Shown here piece after piece: positions 1 to 8,985 of a DNA stretch of 8,985 nucleotides (the stretch's first letter is position 1; each line of letters opens with the position of its first letter). The notes beneath the pieces are model-generated. The model was given only the letters and a program-made list of their open reading frames with translations. It made no database searches and was not told the DNA's origin. This DNA comes from a virus. Lineage: Duplodnaviria; Heunggongvirae; Uroviricota; Caudoviricetes. The stretch lies in the IMG/VR virus record IMGVR_UViG_2698536450_000022; one strand, written 5' to 3'. Position numbers and translations under genes: made by a program.

Positions 1-981
1 TTATAACGTCACTCCGCCTTTTAGTGGATTCAGAGCGACGGCATTTTGCAGATAGTCAGGCGCAAGGTGCGCATAGGCCATCGTCTGCTGAATGCTCGCA
101 TGTCCCAGAATCTGTTGCAGTGCGATTATATTGCCCCCATTCATCATGAAATGGCTTGCGAATGTATGCCGCAGGATGTGGGTTGCCTGATTGGGTGGTA
201 TATCAGGTTTCACTCTGCGTAAAATCCCGCAAAATTTCTCATAATCAACTTTGAATAATTTGGCGCTGGCCTCCTCTTTAACTTTTTTCTCCAGTTCCTC
301 AGAAATCGGCACGGTTCGCTTTTTACCGTTTTTGGTTTTCAGGAAGGTAACCCTGCAATTTGTAATCTGTGCTGGTTTTAGCGTGGCAACTTCCGTCCAT
401 CTTCCTCCGGTGCTCAGACATAAAAGCGCGACAAGTAAGTCATCACCAGCCAAAACATTTAACAGTTTTTCGATTTCTGCTTTTTCCAGGAACGTCATTT
501 CAGGGTTGGCCTCCGCCAGTGGCGGCAGTCCGTGAATTGGGTGTTGCCCGGAAAATTCATCCAATTGAATTAATTTTGTGAACATGCCGGATAATCGGTA
601 CATGTCACGGTTTATCGTTGCGGCACTGATACCATCACGTAGTCGCATGGAACGATAATCCATCAAAGCCCTTTTGCTCATCCTGCTCACTGGTATATCA
701 CCTATGCCGCTGATGGTTTTGAGTAGATGATTAAACTCTTTTGTTCCATGCTCGTGGTTTTGCCCGTGATATTTCCACCAGATGTCCAGCAACTCACTCA
801 AAGTCCGGCGGTCTGCTCGCTGGCCTCCCCATTCTTTCTGACTGGCATTGGCGATTGTGTATCGCTCAAATGCTAGTGCTTCAGCTTTTCTTTCGAATTT
901 CCTGCGGATGCGTTTTCCGTCGCGACCGCGAGGTCTAATGTCCACTTCATAGCGACCATCATCGAGCTTCTTAATTGCCAT
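1..981 (-). CDS. int: P2-like prophage integrase (tyrosine site-specific recombinase). The ORF is open to 1011, but the preferred start is the internal ATG at 981 (MAIKKLDDGRYEV...), which has a GGAGGG Shine-Dalgarno about 7 nt upstream; the ATG at 1011 has none.
   Basis: Complete minus-strand ORF with stop TAA at 1-3. The C-terminus carries the tyrosine recombinase catalytic signature (HILRHTFASHF ... LGHASIQQTMAYAH, i.e. H-x-x-R ... Y). N-terminus MAIKKLDDGRYEVDIRP and the length match P2 Int as recalled from memory. Sits immediately downstream of the C repressor, as in P2. Confidence 0.9.
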   Translation of the reverse strand: MAIKKLDDGRYEVDIRPRGRDGKRIRRKFERKAEALAFERYTIANASQKEWGGQRADRRTLSELLDIWWKYHGQNHEHGTKEFNHLLKTISGIGDIPVSRMSKRALMDYRSMRLRDGISAATINRDMYRLSGMFTKLIQLDEFSGQHPIHGLPPLAEANPEMTFLEKAEIEKLLNVLAGDDLLVALLCLSTGGRWTEVATLKPAQITNCRVTFLKTKNGKKRTVPISEELEKKVKEEASAKLFKVDYEKFCGILRRVKPDIPPNQATHILRHTFASHFMMNGGNIIALQQILGHASIQQTMAYAHLAPDYLQNAVALNPLKGGVTL

Positions 982-1050
982 AAGAAAGCCCTCCGGCGCT
1001 GTATTCACCATCTTGGTAGCAAATGGTGAAAATGTAATCTTTATATAGAG

Positions 1051-3237: not shown

Positions 3238-3509
3238 GTATTCGTATTGAAATTGGCGAACGTTATGTCGTTACCAGTGACAGCTTTCAGTTTATTCTCC
3301 ACGAGAAAAAGAGAGCGGAAAGCGGTAAAAACGCCGGTCAGGAATGGCTGGCGGTGGTTGGTTATTACCCGAAATTAGGCCAGCTCGTTTCCGGCCTGAT
3401 GCATCACGATATTCTGACCGGAAGCGCAAAATCTTTTGCTGATTTAAACGCGCAGGTTGAGCAACTCAGCAAGCGTTGTTCAGAGGCTTTTGGCTCATAT
3501 GGCCGTTAA
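3234..3509 (+). CDS. Small hypothetical protein (91 aa), P2 orf83 position
   Basis: ATGA overlap with the upstream gene at 3234-3237. The 3' end overlaps the A start by 11 nt. No recognisable catalytic motif. Confidence 0.6.
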   Translation: MSIRIEIGERYVVTSDSFQFILHEKKRAESGKNAGQEWLAVVGYYPKLGQLVSGLMHHDILTGSAKSFADLNAQVEQLSKRCSEAFGSYGR

Positions 3510-5772
3510 AGCCTCCGGGCGTTTTGTCCCTCCGTCAGCATTTACCGCAGGCACCGGTAAGGCGTTTACCGGTGCTTATGCATGGAACGCGCCACGCGAG
3601 GCTGTCGGGCGCGAAAGACCTCTTACACGTGACGAGATGCGTCAGGTGCAAGGTGTTTTATCCACGATTAACCGCCTGCCTTATTTTTTGCGCTCGCTGT
3701 TTACTTCACGCTATGACTACATCCGGCGCAATAAAAGCCCGGTGCACGGGTTTTATTTCCTCACATCTACTTTTCAGCGTCGTTTATGGCCGCGCATTGA
3801 GCGTGTGAATCAGCGCCATGAAATGAACACCGACGCGTCGTTGCTGTTTCTGGCAGAGCGTGACCACTATGCGCGCCTGCCGGGAATGAATGACAAGGAG
3901 CTGAAAAAGTTTGCCGCCCGTATCTCATCGCAGCTTTTCATGATGTATGAGGAACTCTGCGATGCATGGGTTGATGCGCATGGTGAAAAAGAATCGCTGT
4001 TTACGGATGAGGCGCAGGCTCACCTGTATGGTCATGTTGCTGGCGCTGCACGTGCTTTCAATATTTCCCCGCTCTACTGGAAAAAATACCGTAAAGGACA
4101 GATGACCACGAGGCAGGCATATTCTGCCATTGCCCGCCTGTTTAACGATGAGTGGTGGACTCATCAGCTTAAAGGCCAGCGTATGCGCTGGCATGAGGCG
4201 TTACTGATAGCTGTCGGGGAGGTCAATAAAGACCGTTCTCCTTATGCCAGTAAACACGCCATTCGTGATGTGCGTGCGCGCCGCCAGGCAAATCTGGAAT
4301 TTCTTAAATCGTGTGACCTTGAAAACAGGGAAACCGGCGAGCGCATCGACCTTATCAGTAAGGTGATGGGCAGTATTTCTAATCCTGAAATTCGCCGGAT
4401 GGAGCTGATGAACACCATTGCCGGTATTGAGCGTTACGCCGCCGCAGAGGGTGATGTGGGGATGTTTATCACGCTGACCGCGCCGTCAAAGTATCACCCG
4501 ACACGTCAGGTCGGAAAAGGCGAAAGTAAAACCGTTCAGCTTAATCACGGCTGGAACGATGAGGCATTTAATCCAAAGGATGCGCAGCGTTATCTCTGCC
4601 GTATCTGGAGCCTGATGCGCACGGCATTCAAGGATAATGATTTACAGGTCTACGGTTTGCGAGTCGTCGAGCCACACCACGACGGAACGCCGCACTGGCA
4701 TATGATGCTTTTTTGTCATCCACGCCAGCGTAACCAGATTATCGAAATCATGCGTCGCTATGCGCTCAAAGAGGATGGCGACGAAAGAGGAGCCGCGCGA
4801 AACCGTTTTCAGGCAAAACACCTTAACCGGGGCGGTGCTGCGGGATATATCGCGAAATACATTTCAAAAAACATCGACGGCTATGCACTGGATGGTCAGC
4901 TCGATAACGACACCGGCAGGCCGCTGAAAGACACTGCAGCGGCTGTTACCGCATGGGCGTCAACGTGGCGCATTCCGCAATTTAAAACGGTTGGCCTGCC
5001 GACAATGGGGGCTTACCGTGAACTACGCAAATTGCCTCGCGGCGTCAGCATTGCTGATGAGTTTGACGAGCGCGTCGAGGCTGCACGCGCCGCCGCAGAC
5101 AGTGGTGATTTTGCGCTGTATATCAGCGCGCAGGGCGGGGCAAATGTCCCGCGCGATTGTCAGACTGTCAGGGTCGCCCGTAGTCTGTCGGATGACGTTA
5201 ACGAGTACGAGGAAGAAGTCGAGAGAGTGGTCGGCATTTACGCGCCGCATCTCGGCGCGCGTCATATTCATATCACCAGAACGACGGACTGGCGCATTGT
5301 GCCGAAAGTTCCGGTCGTTGAGCCTTTGACTTTAAAAAGCGGCATCGCCGCGCCTCGGAGTCCTGTCAATAACTGTGGAAAACTCACCGGTGGTGATACT
5401 TCGTTACCGGCTCCCACACCTTCTGAGCACGCCGCAGCAGTGCTTAATCTGGTTGATGACGGTGTTATCGAATGGAGTGACCCGGAGGTCGTGAGGGCGC
5501 TCAGAGGTGCATTAAAACACGGTCGGAGAACGCCAAGTCGTCAGCAAAGAAACGGAAGCCCGTTAAAACCACATGAAATTGCACCATCGGCCAGACTGAC
5601 CCGGTCGGAAAGAATGCAAATTACCCGTATCCGCGTTGACCTTGCTCAGAACGGTATCAGGCCGCAGCGATGGGAGCTTGAGGCGCTGGCGCGTGGCGCG
5701 ACCGTAAATTATGATGGGAAAACGTTTTCATATCCGATTTCTGATGGTTGGGCGGGATTTGAAACAAACTAA
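3499..5772 (+). CDS. A: Rolling-circle replication initiator (P2 gpA-type HUH replication endonuclease); 757 aa from the ATG at 3499, ORF open from the TTG at 3457
   Basis: HUH-type metal-binding motif ...HHDGTPHWHMMLF (HH at 4675-4680, PHWH at 4690-4701). Paired active-site tyrosines in GYIAKYISKNIDGY (Y codons at 4846-4848 and 4858-4860). Size and position after B and the small ORFs match P2 gene A (761 aa as recalled). The ATG at 3499 gives MAVKASGRFVP... Confidence 0.9.
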   Translation: MAVKASGRFVPPSAFTAGTGKAFTGAYAWNAPREAVGRERPLTRDEMRQVQGVLSTINRLPYFLRSLFTSRYDYIRRNKSPVHGFYFLTSTFQRRLWPRIERVNQRHEMNTDASLLFLAERDHYARLPGMNDKELKKFAARISSQLFMMYEELCDAWVDAHGEKESLFTDEAQAHLYGHVAGAARAFNISPLYWKKYRKGQMTTRQAYSAIARLFNDEWWTHQLKGQRMRWHEALLIAVGEVNKDRSPYASKHAIRDVRARRQANLEFLKSCDLENRETGERIDLISKVMGSISNPEIRRMELMNTIAGIERYAAAEGDVGMFITLTAPSKYHPTRQVGKGESKTVQLNHGWNDEAFNPKDAQRYLCRIWSLMRTAFKDNDLQVYGLRVVEPHHDGTPHWHMMLFCHPRQRNQIIEIMRRYALKEDGDERGAARNRFQAKHLNRGGAAGYIAKYISKNIDGYALDGQLDNDTGRPLKDTAAAVTAWASTWRIPQFKTVGLPTMGAYRELRKLPRGVSIADEFDERVEAARAAADSGDFALYISAQGGANVPRDCQTVRVARSLSDDVNEYEEEVERVVGIYAPHLGARHIHITRTTDWRIVPKVPVVEPLTLKSGIAAPRSPVNNCGKLTGGDTSLPAPTPSEHAAAVLNLVDDGVIEWSDPEVVRALRGALKHGRRTPSRQQRNGSPLKPHEIAPSARLTRSERMQITRIRVDLAQNGIRPQRWELEALARGATVNYDGKTFSYPISDGWAGFETN

Positions 5773-5781
5773 CAATAATGA

Positions 5782-5883
5782 TTGACATGCTTGATTTTGT
5801 ATTCACAAATCAAGCATCAAGTAAACATCGATGATGAGAAAGAACAATGCTACAATCCCCACAGCATTAGAAGGAGGTTTATC
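5782..5883 (+). promoter_or_regulatory. Promoter/operator region of the methyltransferase gene
   Basis: TTGACA at 5782-5787. Perfect 9-bp inverted repeat GCTTGATTT (5789-5797) / AAATCAAGC (5807-5815) with a 9-bp spacer. Extended -10 TGcTACAAT at 5848-5856. Shine-Dalgarno AAGGAGG at 5871-5877, 6 nt before the TTG at 5884. Confidence 0.55.
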
Positions 5884-6933
5884 TTGATTAAGGTTGTTGA
5901 TTTATTCTGTGGCGCGGGTGGCTTGACTCACGGTCTTCAGAAGTCGGGGCTTAATGTAGTTGCAGGTTATGATATAGATGCAGCCTGTCGATTTGCCTAT
6001 GAGACAAATAATAAATCACTCTTTGTCCAGAAAAGTGTTACAGACATTGAGGACGGCGAATTAGTTAAATATTTCGAAGGAGCGAAGGTTCGAGTTTTGG
6101 CTGGTTGTGCCCCATGCCAACCTTTTTCAAGCTATACCAATAGTGCTAAATTAGGGGTAGTACGTTCAAAAGATAAAAGATGGTCTTTGCTTTATAGCTT
6201 TGCTAAGCAAATTAAATTTGCAAAGCCAGATATTATTACAATGGAAAACGTTCCCCGAGTGGTGAATCATAAGGTTTTTAAGGACTTCATTAAGTCTCTT
6301 AAAAATGATGGCTATTTTGTTTGGTATGGGGTGGTGTTTTGTCCAGACTATGGAATGGCACAAAGTCGTTCAAGATTAGTGTTATTGGCATCAAAATATG
6401 GAGAAATAGAAATAATTCCACCAACTCATGAGAAGAATGATTATAAAACGGTGCGAGATATAATCGGTAATCTTCCTGAAATTAGTGCCGGTGCTGTTCA
6501 CGCTGGAGATAAACTACATCGCTCTGCATCATTATCTGATATTAATATAAAAAGAATAATGGCATCAAAACCTGGTGGAACATGGCGTGATTGGCCAGAA
6601 GAGCTAAGAGCAAAATGTCATACAAAAGAAAGTGGTTCTACATATACTGCTGTATATGGGAGAATGTGTTGGGATAAACTTGGACCGACAATTACAACTC
6701 AATGTATTGGATATGGGAATGGACGCTTTGGGCACCCTGTCCAAAATAGAGCATTAAGTTTAAGAGAGGCTGCGCTATTACAGTCATTCCCAGAAAAGTA
6801 TGAGTTTTGGCCTGATGATGTAAAAATTGAAATGAGAACAGTTGCGCGTTTAATAGGTAATGCTGTTCCTGTTAGGCTTGGTGAGGTCGTAGGTGAAACT
6901 ATTTTAAAACATTTGTCAGAAATGAATATTTAA
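5884..6933 (+). CDS. DNA (cytosine-5)-methyltransferase, Dcm/C5-MTase family; about 349 aa from the TTG start at 5884 (ORF open from the ATG at 5782, but that extension lacks an RBS and looks non-coding)
   Basis: Canonical C5-MTase motifs in order: motif I DLFCGAGG (5899-5922), catalytic motif IV GCAPCQPFSSY (PCQ at 6112-6120), motif VI ENV (6244-6252), motif VIII QSRSRLVLL, and C-terminal motifs IX/X ...RLIGNAVPVRLGEVVGE. A variable region between VIII and IX is consistent with a target-recognition domain. Confidence 0.9.
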   Translation: MIKVVDLFCGAGGLTHGLQKSGLNVVAGYDIDAACRFAYETNNKSLFVQKSVTDIEDGELVKYFEGAKVRVLAGCAPCQPFSSYTNSAKLGVVRSKDKRWSLLYSFAKQIKFAKPDIITMENVPRVVNHKVFKDFIKSLKNDGYFVWYGVVFCPDYGMAQSRSRLVLLASKYGEIEIIPPTHEKNDYKTVRDIIGNLPEISAGAVHAGDKLHRSASLSDINIKRIMASKPGGTWRDWPEELRAKCHTKESGSTYTAVYGRMCWDKLGPTITTQCIGYGNGRFGHPVQNRALSLREAALLQSFPEKYEFWPDDVKIEMRTVARLIGNAVPVRLGEVVGETILKHLSEMNI

Positions 6934-6945
6934 AACTTATGTCAT

Positions 6946-6969
6946 CCCCCCTGTCAAAAAACAGGGGGG
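6946..6969. terminator. GC-rich hairpin between the convergent methyltransferase and nuclease genes (candidate bidirectional terminator)
   Basis: CCCCCCTGT (6946-6954) pairs with ACAGGGGGG (6961-6969) around a 6-nt loop CAAAAA. It lies 13 nt after the MTase stop and 7 nt before the minus-strand stop. No strong U-tract on either side, so intrinsic termination is uncertain. Confidence 0.4.
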
Positions 6970-6975
6970 GTATAA

Positions 6976-8985
6976 TTAGATTCCCTCAACTATTTTCATA
7001 ATTCTAGCTGCATCATTCTTTTTGTCTTGATATTCAGCATAGGCTTGTTTTGATTGCACGATTAGGTCATTATATGTCAATATTTTTCCATTGATAGAAA
7101 GTAATTGCATATTTATAAAGTGTTGGTTCTCTTGTAAATATCCAGAGCCAACCAGGAATATTACTTCTATATGCGGTATATTTCCACCTGGGCAATTTTT
7201 AGGGTTATTGGAGAACCATTGTGTCGTTGCCTGTACATATTTATTACCTTGTGCGACTAGGTTCATTATATCTGGGTGCACTTTAGGTCGTTTCATCTCA
7301 ATAATTACATGCTTGCCAGAAACGGTTTTGAAAGCGATATCAATACGAGCACCGCTAGCAGCATCAGGGTTTATCTGTTTTAGTTCCTTGGTCAATGTTT
7401 GCTCCATAACAGATGTGCCTGTGACTCTTTCCCATGAAGGATCCAATAACCATAAATGATCATATAAATACATTTGTACAGCTCTTTCAAGCTGATTTTC
7501 ATCAGTTATTTTTTGGAATTTTTCAATTACTTTAAGGCGTTGCGAAGTAATTTCATAAAACATGCTTGCTTCAATGTCATTGACAGATGCAAATACATCT
7601 TTAAAATTTTCTGATTGAAGGTTGCTTATTTTATCTAATGCATCAAGGTTGTCTTGAATTCTAAGTCTTTCAAAGGCTAATACCGTATTTTTTAATACGG
7701 TTTTTCTTGCTGCTTTTTGTTCTTCCTCATTACCAGAAAAACGGAATGTGTTTACTCGTCCAATTAACTTTTCGGCACTTTCTCTCTCATGTTTTTTGAG
7801 AGAATTCAGCCATTCACTTACTATTGGAGTATTGCTTTTAACTTCATTTACTCCTTTTTCGCGTCTCCATTTATCCCAATCTTTATCGATTAGTTGTAGC
7901 GTTCTTTCCAGAAAACCTTTAAGTACAGGGTATCTTGGATCATTCTGTTGTAGTTTTTGACGAGAAGATGTTGCCATATCAGGCTTTTCGTTATCATCTA
8001 GAAAATCGGCGACTATTTCACCGACCAGATAATTGGTGAATACTTTAGCACTTCCAAATTCTAATAATATGTCCTCCTCAAAAACACGTCCGTGAGAGAT
8101 TACAGTAATGCTGTTGTTAGATATTTCAGGGTCTTTCTTTAACTGTGATGGCTTAACTACACTGCCAATGTACCCACTAACTTTTACATCTTTTCCTTCA
8201 AAGGTAATAGTATTTGGTAATATGTTTTTTTGTGTGATGTTTGTGCAGGATTTTATCCTTTCAGGGTCGGATTCGCCAAATTCCCAAATGAACTCGAGAT
8301 CTGAAAGGAAATCTCTATCTGCCGGTGTAATATCGGTCCCATTAATTTTAACTGTAAAGTTATGGTTGGGGCCAATAATGCTAAATCGACGAGCTATTCG
8401 CTTTCTGAGGTAAGTTTGAGTCCTATCAATGGCTTTTTTTAGTTCAAATAATTTAATTGTAGTGCCGTAAGCAAGATTTTCGGGTATTTCAAGGGAGTCA
8501 GCAATATAGTTTTTTGATTCTTTGATACTTTGCTGTAAATCTTTGACATCTACCTCAAAGGCCTGAGGCTGTTCCCCCTTTTTGTACGAATAAACTTGGA
8601 TTTTATTGGCAAGTGAAAACATGGCAAGCTTACCAATACCTTTTCTGCCCATAACTTGACGTTTTAGATGATCGCTTTTGGCTCTTCCATGTTCCCTGCG
8701 AGCATAACCGACTTTTAGGAACTTATTAATAATGTCATCTTTAGACATGCCATGACCATCATCTTTAATGATGACCTCTCCTTTCTCAACATCAAGTGTA
8801 ATTTCTACATTTTGAGCATCTGCATCCCATGCATTTGATATAATCTCAGTTAGTACCGCGGGAGTATTGGAATAGAGACTCATCCCTAGGGAAGGTGCGA
8901 ATAAGCAGGTCATTTCTTCCCAAGCTGACTCGCTGATTAAAATTTCGCGGATCTGGGCCGATTTTTTTCCCGTAAACACATCGAA
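6976..8985 (-). CDS. GHKL-family ATPase (MORC/MutL/Hsp90-like Bergerat fold) fused to a C-terminal PD-(D/E)xK nuclease domain; putative ATP-dependent restriction/defence nuclease. 5' end is incomplete: the frame is open to the window edge.
   Basis: Minus-strand ORF with stop at 6976-6978. GHKL motifs: N-box EIISNAWDA (8821-8847), G1 box DDGHGM (8746-8763), G2 box GRKGIGKLA (8623-8649). C-terminal RIDIAF ... IIEMK gives D547 / E561 / K563 of a PD-(D/E)xK core (7291-7341). The track's start at 8977-8979 is GTG, and the two codons upstream to 8985 (F, D) are in frame with no stop, so the true start is probably beyond the window. Confidence 0.85.
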   Translation of the reverse strand, partial: FDVFTGKKSAQIREILISESAWEEMTCLFAPSLGMSLYSNTPAVLTEIISNAWDADAQNVEITLDVEKGEVIIKDDGHGMSKDDIINKFLKVGYARREHGRAKSDHLKRQVMGRKGIGKLAMFSLANKIQVYSYKKGEQPQAFEVDVKDLQQSIKESKNYIADSLEIPENLAYGTTIKLFELKKAIDRTQTYLRKRIARRFSIIGPNHNFTVKINGTDITPADRDFLSDLEFIWEFGESDPERIKSCTNITQKNILPNTITFEGKDVKVSGYIGSVVKPSQLKKDPEISNNSITVISHGRVFEEDILLEFGSAKVFTNYLVGEIVADFLDDNEKPDMATSSRQKLQQNDPRYPVLKGFLERTLQLIDKDWDKWRREKGVNEVKSNTPIVSEWLNSLKKHERESAEKLIGRVNTFRFSGNEEEQKAARKTVLKNTVLAFERLRIQDNLDALDKISNLQSENFKDVFASVNDIEASMFYEITSQRLKVIEKFQKITDENQLERAVQMYLYDHLWLLDPSWERVTGTSVMEQTLTKELKQINPDAASGARIDIAFKTVSGKHVIIEMKRPKVHPDIMNLVAQGNKYVQATTQWFSNNPKNCPGGNIPHIEVIFLVGSGYLQENQHFINMQLLSINGKILTYNDLIVQSKQAYAEYQDKKNDAARIMKIVEGI

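Follow-up and report, generated by a model that had tools for sequence, protein, structure and literature searches.

A predicted HgiDII/BbrUII-type restriction-modification gene pair in the gpA-gpQ slot of a P2-like prophage, with its restriction gene interrupted by an IS5-like element

RESULTS

The gene pair and its place in the prophage

The DNA analysed here, 8,985 nucleotides (nt) from the IMG/VR virus record IMGVR_UViG_2698536450_000022 and referred to below as the window, is the left arm of a P2-like prophage, with an integrase gene (1-1011, minus strand), the C repressor, cox and B genes, small open reading frames and replication gene A. Behind gene A lie a gene for a C5-cytosine DNA methyltransferase on the plus strand and a gene for a large GHKL ATPase-nuclease on the minus strand, arranged tail to tail with a hairpin between their stop codons, as an earlier reading made from the sequence alone (the sequence-only reading) had described. 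The two genes match an already catalogued family of type II restriction-modification systems, that of HgiDII and BbrUII, and the nuclease gene is cut near its 5' end by an insertion sequence (IS) of the IS5 family. The features of the locus are listed in Table 1.

Table 1. Features of the gene pair and its surroundings, in window coordinates
Feature	Position	Strand	Evidence or remarks
P2-type replication gene A	3457-5772	+	Pfam Phage_GPA, E = 2.8e-124; left flank of the cargo hotspot
Perfect 11-bp inverted repeat ATGCTTGATTT / AAATCAAGCAT, 9-nt spacer	5787-5817		Repeat search; RNA fold -13 kcal/mol, z-score -3.2
Putative methyltransferase expression signals	5848-5877	+	Extended -10 TGCTACAAT at 5848-5856; AGGAGG at 5872-5877; read from the sequence
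C5-cytosine DNA methyltransferase, 349 aa, intact	5884-6933	+	Pfam PF00145 DNA_methylase, E = 9.2e-56; TIGR00675, 130 bits against a cut-off of 100.65
G/C-rich 11-bp stem-loop	6944-6971		RNA fold -20.9/-21.0 kcal/mol, z-score -3.7/-3.9 on the two strands
5'-truncated BbrUII/HgiDII (paraMORC3) restriction endonuclease gene	6976-8889	-	Native codons 16-652 and stop; NCBIfam NF050001
C-terminal Shedu/NucS-type PD-(D/E)xK nuclease domain	6979-7449	-	E511 (7402-7404), D532 (7339-7341), E546 (7297-7299), K548 (7291-7293)
Helical linker region, residues ~331-495	7450-7944	-	AlphaFold2 secondary structure; lower pLDDT here
Middle (transducer-like) domain, residues ~171-330	7945-8424	-	AlphaFold2 model
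GHKL ATPase domain, residues ~20-170	8425-8877	-	Pfam HATPase_c_3, E = 2.4e-25
CTAG target site, native codons 16-17 of the nuclease gene	8886-8889		Alignment with intact loci
Terminal 96 bases of an IS5-like ISKpn26 element	8890-8985		Starts with inverted repeat GGAAGGTGCGAATAAG; transposase-distal end

Homology of the backbone to other P2-like prophages stops at ~5760-5800. GC content is ~0.52-0.57 in gene A and falls to 0.33-0.40 in the methyltransferase and nuclease genes, and the insert is present in only 30 of the 1437 E. coli genomes that have this gene-A end. In intact relatives the portal gene Q flanks the other side, and nothing but the two genes and some small unannotated open reading frames lies between gpA and gpQ. 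The pair is therefore variable prophage cargo in a P2-type slot. The gpA-gpQ interval, beside cos, is a documented defence hotspot of P2, where it holds old and tin (PMC9122126); this, together with the synteny in phage PhiR44_1 and strain CFSAN061771, bears out the earlier placement of the module in the tin/old slot after gene A. The position beside gene A and, in the intact relatives, gene Q is shared with old, tin and other gpA-gpQ cargo (Rousset et al. 2022, PMC9122126), whereas the genes themselves are unrelated, being those for the OLD nuclease and Tin in P2 and a classical restriction-modification pair here. Gene A is annotated as 'replication endonuclease' or 'GpA' in PhiR44_1 and CFSAN061771, and in RefSeq the identical gene begins at what corresponds to position 3499.

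The large protein belongs to the HgiDII/BbrUII family

The nuclease matched the NCBIfam model NF050001, "BbrUII/HgiDII family restriction enzyme", with 731.3 bits over profile positions 12-658 of 659; this is a curated equivalog model with a cut-off of 550 bits. The PADLOC model REase_II was matched at 4.6e-90. By megablast of 5700-8985, the locus was found at 99.9-100% nucleotide identity in 30 of 5426 complete E. coli genomes, in which the pair lies between gpA and the portal gene and is annotated as 'BbrUII/HgiDII family restriction enzyme' and 'DNA cytosine methyltransferase'. The GenBank record of phage PhiR44_1 (PV340563) labels the same two genes 'ParaMORC3' and 'Dcm protein'. The protein encoded by the nuclease remnant is identical to residues 16-652 of WP_001279022.1 from strain CFSAN061771, which bears the family's name in RefSeq, and likewise to the PhiR44_1 protein.

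This family has been described before. R.HgiDII was assigned a GHKL N-terminal domain, with the C-terminal domain then unassigned (Orlowski and Bujnicki 2008, PMC2441816). The paraMORC3 proteins were defined as GHKL plus S5 plus a restriction endonuclease fold with the residues E-D-ExK, tied to cytosine methylases in restriction-modification operons (Iyer, Abhiman and Aravind 2008, PMC2292703); a DNA-looping mechanism is a proposal of the same paper. The protein encoded in the window has this architecture, with an S5-like middle domain, and this methylase link, the identical phage gene is labelled ParaMORC3 in GenBank, and we find no substantive difference between the two.

Comparison with HgiDII from Herpetosiphon and BbrUII from Bifidobacterium breve UCC2003 gives a similar picture. 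The nuclease is a full-length match above the equivalog cut-off, it has the same GHKL N-terminus as R.HgiDII (PMC2441816), and, as in both systems, its partner is a 5-methylcytosine (m5C) methyltransferase. Unlike HgiDII and BbrUII, the pair occupies the gpA-gpQ slot of a P2-like prophage in E. coli, its restriction (R) gene is cut by an IS, and the target of the E. coli enzyme is a predicted one; its genes are convergent, whereas loci of the family more commonly form an operon with the methyltransferase (M) gene preceding the R gene. Judged by these similarities, the pair is a type II restriction-modification system that has already been catalogued, in the HgiDII/BbrUII family. The proposal of a restriction-modification module thus stands, on the family match and the methyltransferase linkage. 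The novelty that the sequence-only reading implied does not, since NF050001 is an equivalog model, REase_II is matched and paraMORC3 was described in 2008. That reading had itself named a match to a characterised restriction-modification system as the result that would speak against it, and the NF050001 and REase_II searches give such a match at the level of the family.

An IS5-like element interrupts the restriction gene

Against the intact 652-codon gene, homology is lost at 8889/8890, precisely where an IS5-type inverted repeat abuts CTAG, and the alignments of all 30 matching E. coli genomes end at window position 8890. In the intact loci of CFSAN061771 and PhiR44_1, the gene begins ATG TCA GAT TTC ... 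AAT CAC CTA GGG ATG, and the window joins it only from CTAG, which is the preferred target of IS5. The stretch beyond the junction has matches in 4671 plasmid records and in 2849 records of E. coli. The same 100 bases adjoin an 'IS5-like element ISKpn26 family transposase' on plasmid NZ_CP122606 and InsH/IS5D in phage RCS47. We conclude that an IS5-family ISKpn26 element is inserted at CTAG in codons 16-17 of the restriction gene, with its transposase gene outside the window and oriented towards the nuclease remnant.

The sequence-only reading had taken the nuclease gene to be intact and merely to continue past 8985. This assumption fails, since 8890-8985 is the 3' end of ISKpn26 with its terminal inverted repeat. 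The apparent N-terminus obtained by read-through, FDVFTGKK...FAPS, is IS sequence, and native codons 1-15 are absent. The window copy is thus an incomplete restriction gene, and intact alleles are found in the 30 E. coli genomes and in PhiR44_1. With an IS of ~1.2 kb added, the prophage would measure ~33.6 kb, close to the size of P2, as estimated from the 32,366-bp record of PhiR44_1.

Domains and predicted structure of the restriction enzyme

Conservation was judged from two alignments, one of 13 and one of 64 homologues, with identities as low as 44%. Among the 64, the GHKL motifs are invariant: the N box (E30, N34 and D37), G1 (D58, G60 and G62), G2 (G96-G101) and G157-T158. Likewise invariant are the nuclease residues E511, D532, E546 and K548. 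The last three correspond to D547, E561 and K563 of the sequence-only reading, whose numbering is offset by 15, and its choice of nuclease residues was therefore correct, as were its assignments of an N-terminal GHKL ATPase, now backed by HATPase_c_3, and of a PD-(D/E)xK nuclease.

The AlphaFold2 model of the intact protein has a mean predicted local distance difference test score (pLDDT) of 79.6 and aligns with the N and M domains of Hsp90, TRAP1 and GRP94 over ~380-450 columns (E ~1e-11 to 1e-12). The full-length Foldseek search is dominated by these Hsp90 matches, and the nuclease fold becomes visible only when the C-terminal part is modelled separately. The last 180 residues, modelled apart, have a pLDDT of 86.4, and their top match is E. 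coli SduA (8ps5_A, E = 1.5e-5, TM-score 0.50), followed by EndoMS (5gke) and NucS (2vld). The Pfam family PF14082 (SduA_C) matches 19 of the 64 relatives, at best with 1.8e-6; on the window protein it gave no match, even at E <= 10 on the C-terminal part. Pfam searches at E <= 10 with the C-terminal 274 aa and the middle 300 aa returned nothing useful. A profile search of PDB sequences found Hsp90/HtpG GHKL domains only, and no solved relative of the nuclease family.

The methyltransferase gene is intact

The methyltransferase contains all of the catalytic motifs looked for, namely I (FCGAGG), IV (PCQ), VI (ENV), VIII (QSRSR) and X (GNAV). Its gene most likely starts at the TTG at 5884 behind an AGGAGG Shine-Dalgarno sequence, in agreement with the RefSeq and GenBank annotation of identical genes, and its bounds equal those of WP_000598783.1 in strain CFSAN061771. 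Of the earlier proposal, the Dcm-family C5-methyltransferase on the plus strand after gene A is upheld by Pfam and the motifs, and the start at 5782 gives way to 5884. The top PADLOC names for the protein are DrmMII and DruM. The DISARM and Druantia systems were rejected: DrmA/B/C or DruA-E partners are lacking, and intact loci hold just two genes between gpA and gpQ. The DrmMII and DruM matches reflect general similarity among C5-methyltransferase sequences. From its family and its neighbour, the enzyme is predicted to serve an HgiDII/BbrUII-type system as its cognate M subunit and to have GTCGAC as its target.

Nuclease and methyltransferase are inherited together

The family was sampled in 80 diverse genomic loci, spread over many bacterial phyla and some archaea, with family members of 34-43% identity. 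In 61 of them a C5-methyltransferase orthologue with 43-58% identity to the enzyme of the window stands directly next to the nuclease gene; it lies upstream and co-directional in 57, convergent as in the window in 3, and downstream on the same strand in 1. Among 14 loci that gave no tblastn match, 4 lack the upstream flank, 1 has a divergent C5-methyltransferase detected by Pfam and 1 has a Vsr gene. In IMG/VR, a full-length family nuclease occurs at 68 loci, and at 67 of these a C5-methyltransferase is its neighbour; this is at least 40% identical to the window enzyme in 56 of the 68. Between 25 and 28 of these viral loci occupy P2-type gpA-gpQ slots, with at least 3 divergent versions of the pair, so that versions of this nuclease/methyltransferase pair recur in the same slot of P2-like phages.

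The gpA-gpQ slot of some viral contigs holds at least 2 other versions of a GHKL-nuclease and C5-methyltransferase pair that are far more divergent, in the order M then R, with R proteins 36-38% identical in one version and 25-27% in the other; some of the phages concerned have a gene A that is 97% identical to that of the window. On some viral contigs the nuclease match ends at about residue 360, covering the GHKL and middle domains only, with an orthologous methyltransferase adjacent, which suggests another C-terminal effector module or a split gene. The metagenome-assembled genome OY282369.1, 'uncultured Cenarchaeum sp.', has five family nuclease copies, mostly with no orthologous methyltransferase adjacent, one of them beside a DDE transposase gene. 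A 61%-identical homologue in Vibrio cholerae GCA_026766275.1 stands beside the CI repressor of a gpA-bearing prophage, unlike the P2 slot in E. coli; examined as a candidate VcSduA, it was uninformative, since the contig breaks off at the gene and leaves the partner region out of view.

Consequence of the insertion for the restriction enzyme

The insertion removes residues D9, N11, L13, N14 and H15, which form the motif D9-x-N11-x-L13-N14-H15 and are invariant in the 64 homologues. In the AlphaFold2 model, the lost residues form an N-terminal strand and helix. In the profile search of PDB sequences they align with the N-terminal strap region of Hsp90. In GHKL proteins of the Hsp90 type, the N-terminal strand and helix shut over the ATP site upon dimerisation. 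The IS separates the restriction gene from its promoter, its start codon and this N-terminal motif. With the promoter, the start codon and residues 1-15 removed, loss or severe weakening of restriction is expected, and restriction by the window copy is most likely lost or crippled. The intact methyltransferase should still modify DNA.

Loss of the R gene first is the usual route by which restriction-modification systems decay, because this order is not lethal. A 2026 survey found defence pseudogenes to be rare in P2 hotspots and considered transposable elements infrequent in phage genomes (PMC13586616); since such pseudogenes are rare there, the disrupted allele is a slightly unusual, though unremarkable, state. 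It offers a clean case of a prophage restriction-modification system that would have been disarmed by an IS while the methyltransferase survived.

DISCUSSION

We consider it very probable that the window carries an HgiDII/BbrUII-type restriction-modification pair in the P2 gpA-gpQ slot, with the R gene disrupted by the IS and the methyltransferase intact. In such a system the C5-methyltransferase would methylate its target, predicted as GTCGAC, on host and prophage DNA, and the intact 652-aa enzyme, made of the GHKL domain, middle domain, helical linker and Shedu/NucS-type nuclease, would cut unmethylated incoming DNA and so protect the lysogen. By analogy with Hsp90, MutL and VcSduA, the GHKL module is probably a dimerisation clamp, operated by ATP, through which the nuclease is gated; in VcSduA, the ATPase residue E27 is required for defence (PMC12137116).

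Several observations weigh against this explanation. An exact search of GTDB representative genomes with the junction 40-mer (8870-8909) gave 0 matches, megablast of 8840-8985 against the 5426 complete E. coli genomes found no record across the junction, and the window covers only 96 bases of the IS, the remainder of the element, the second CTAG and the 45-bp 5' fragment lying beyond it. Both the missing matches and the short visible end would be in line with an artefact of assembly or of the window, in which case the restriction gene would really be intact. We find this scarcely credible, given the exact anatomy of an IS5-family insertion, with the terminal inverted repeat GGAAGGTGCG directly after the CTAG of the target gene; a chimeric assembly is not expected to hit precisely an IS terminus. 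With respect to the remnant, the reading frame continues without a stop from 8985 across the junction, an ATG is present within the IS at 8911-8913, and the transposase gene, on the same strand, is directed at the remnant; a protein with an altered N-terminus could therefore still be made. Transcription read-through from the ISKpn26 transposase gene and a start at this ATG, which would give MTCLFAPS followed by residues 16-652, or at native M18, might then yield an active nuclease that retains all GHKL motifs and the entire nuclease domain, with the methyltransferase restraining a working or deregulated enzyme. This is improbable, since D9, N11, L13, N14 and H15 are lost although they are invariant down to 44% identity and belong to the modelled N-terminal strand and helix, and since neither ATG has a good Shine-Dalgarno sequence upstream.

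The large protein could also be a nuclease of the Shedu type I-D style that senses infection, like VcSduA of Vibrio cholerae, next to an unrelated or solitary phage methylase. E. coli SduA is the best structural match of its C-terminal domain, PF14082 recognises some of its relatives, GHKL-DUF4263 proteins are classed as Shedu type I-D, VcSduA defends alone (PMC12137116; bioRxiv 2023.08.10.552793), and ~10 of the 80 genomic loci have no adjacent C5-methyltransferase. VcSduA (PMC12137116) also has the same domain order as the window nuclease and similar catalytic positions (E27 and K557 in VcSduA, E30 and K548 here). However, the window protein passes the equivalog cut-off of a family named for two characterised sequence-specific enzymes, matches no SduA model in PADLOC and has no significant PF14082 match. 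VcSduA acts alone and is non-toxic in E. coli, whereas the clade of the window protein is tied to a cognate methyltransferase and named after type II enzymes. Shedu is a single gene with no modification partner; here an orthologous methyltransferase is conserved beside the nuclease across many phyla and gene orders, and nearly all viral loci have an adjacent C5-methyltransferase. We therefore regard a Shedu-like sensor as very improbable; the co-inheritance and the two characterised namesakes make the restriction-modification reading much the stronger.

The details of specificity and ATP use are less firm. M.HgiDII is an experimentally characterised m5C methyltransferase with the target GTCGAC (PMC5867850), and M.BbrUII is stated to recognise GTCGAC as well (PMC5005818). 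The literature is in conflict on M.BbrUII, which is an N6-adenine methylase in PMC5829577 and an m5C homologue of M.HgiDII in PMC5867850 and PMC5005818. When 58 linked methyltransferases were compared with the window enzyme, the target recognition domain (TRD) region was 56% identical and almost gapless, against 47% in the N-terminal catalytic core, which fits one specificity common to the linked enzymes. By analogy with the namesakes we infer GTCGAC for the E. coli enzyme. GTCGAC occurs 0 times in the window (1.7 expected) and 1-2 times in 15 kb (3.5 expected), counts too small to speak of avoidance. Restriction may be ATP-dependent, as the sequence-only reading proposed. Two points speak against this: the literature searched gave no biochemical study on ATP use by the HgiDII/BbrUII family, and HgiDII counts as an orthodox enzyme of type IIP (PMC2441816), so ATP is perhaps unneeded for cleavage.

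The resemblance to SduA raises a broader proposal, which we advance tentatively and consider rather doubtful: that HgiDII/BbrUII are a clade in which a GHKL-gated Shedu-type (DUF4263-like) nuclease acts as a methylation-sensitive, sequence-specific restriction enzyme. A link between HgiDII/BbrUII enzymes and the Shedu type I-D class was not stated in the literature searched. If the proposal is true, it would establish a direct link between type II restriction of the classical kind and the 'Shedu type I-D' class of defence, and the IS allele in the window would be a natural deletion of the N-terminal strap. The locus otherwise has little discovery value, as RefSeq, GenBank and the literature already document the family, its m5C methyltransferase partner and its carriage by P2-like prophages.

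Other features of the locus

The inverted repeat at 5787-5817 stands just past the gene A stop codon, at the boundary of backbone and cargo, and overlaps a TTGACA hexamer (5782-5787). Its possible roles are those of an operator, of a recombination boundary or of a stem-loop that ends the early operon. An Rfam scan of the window found no RNA family match. A consensus promoter and terminator scan of the window called no methyltransferase promoter and missed the intergenic hairpin, with counts that did not exceed those in shuffled sequence. The hairpin at 6944-6971 is terminator-like on both strands, with no U-tract. Compared with CFSAN061771, it differs by 1 nt in a G/C run, which is the sole length change in the shared 3.19 kb.

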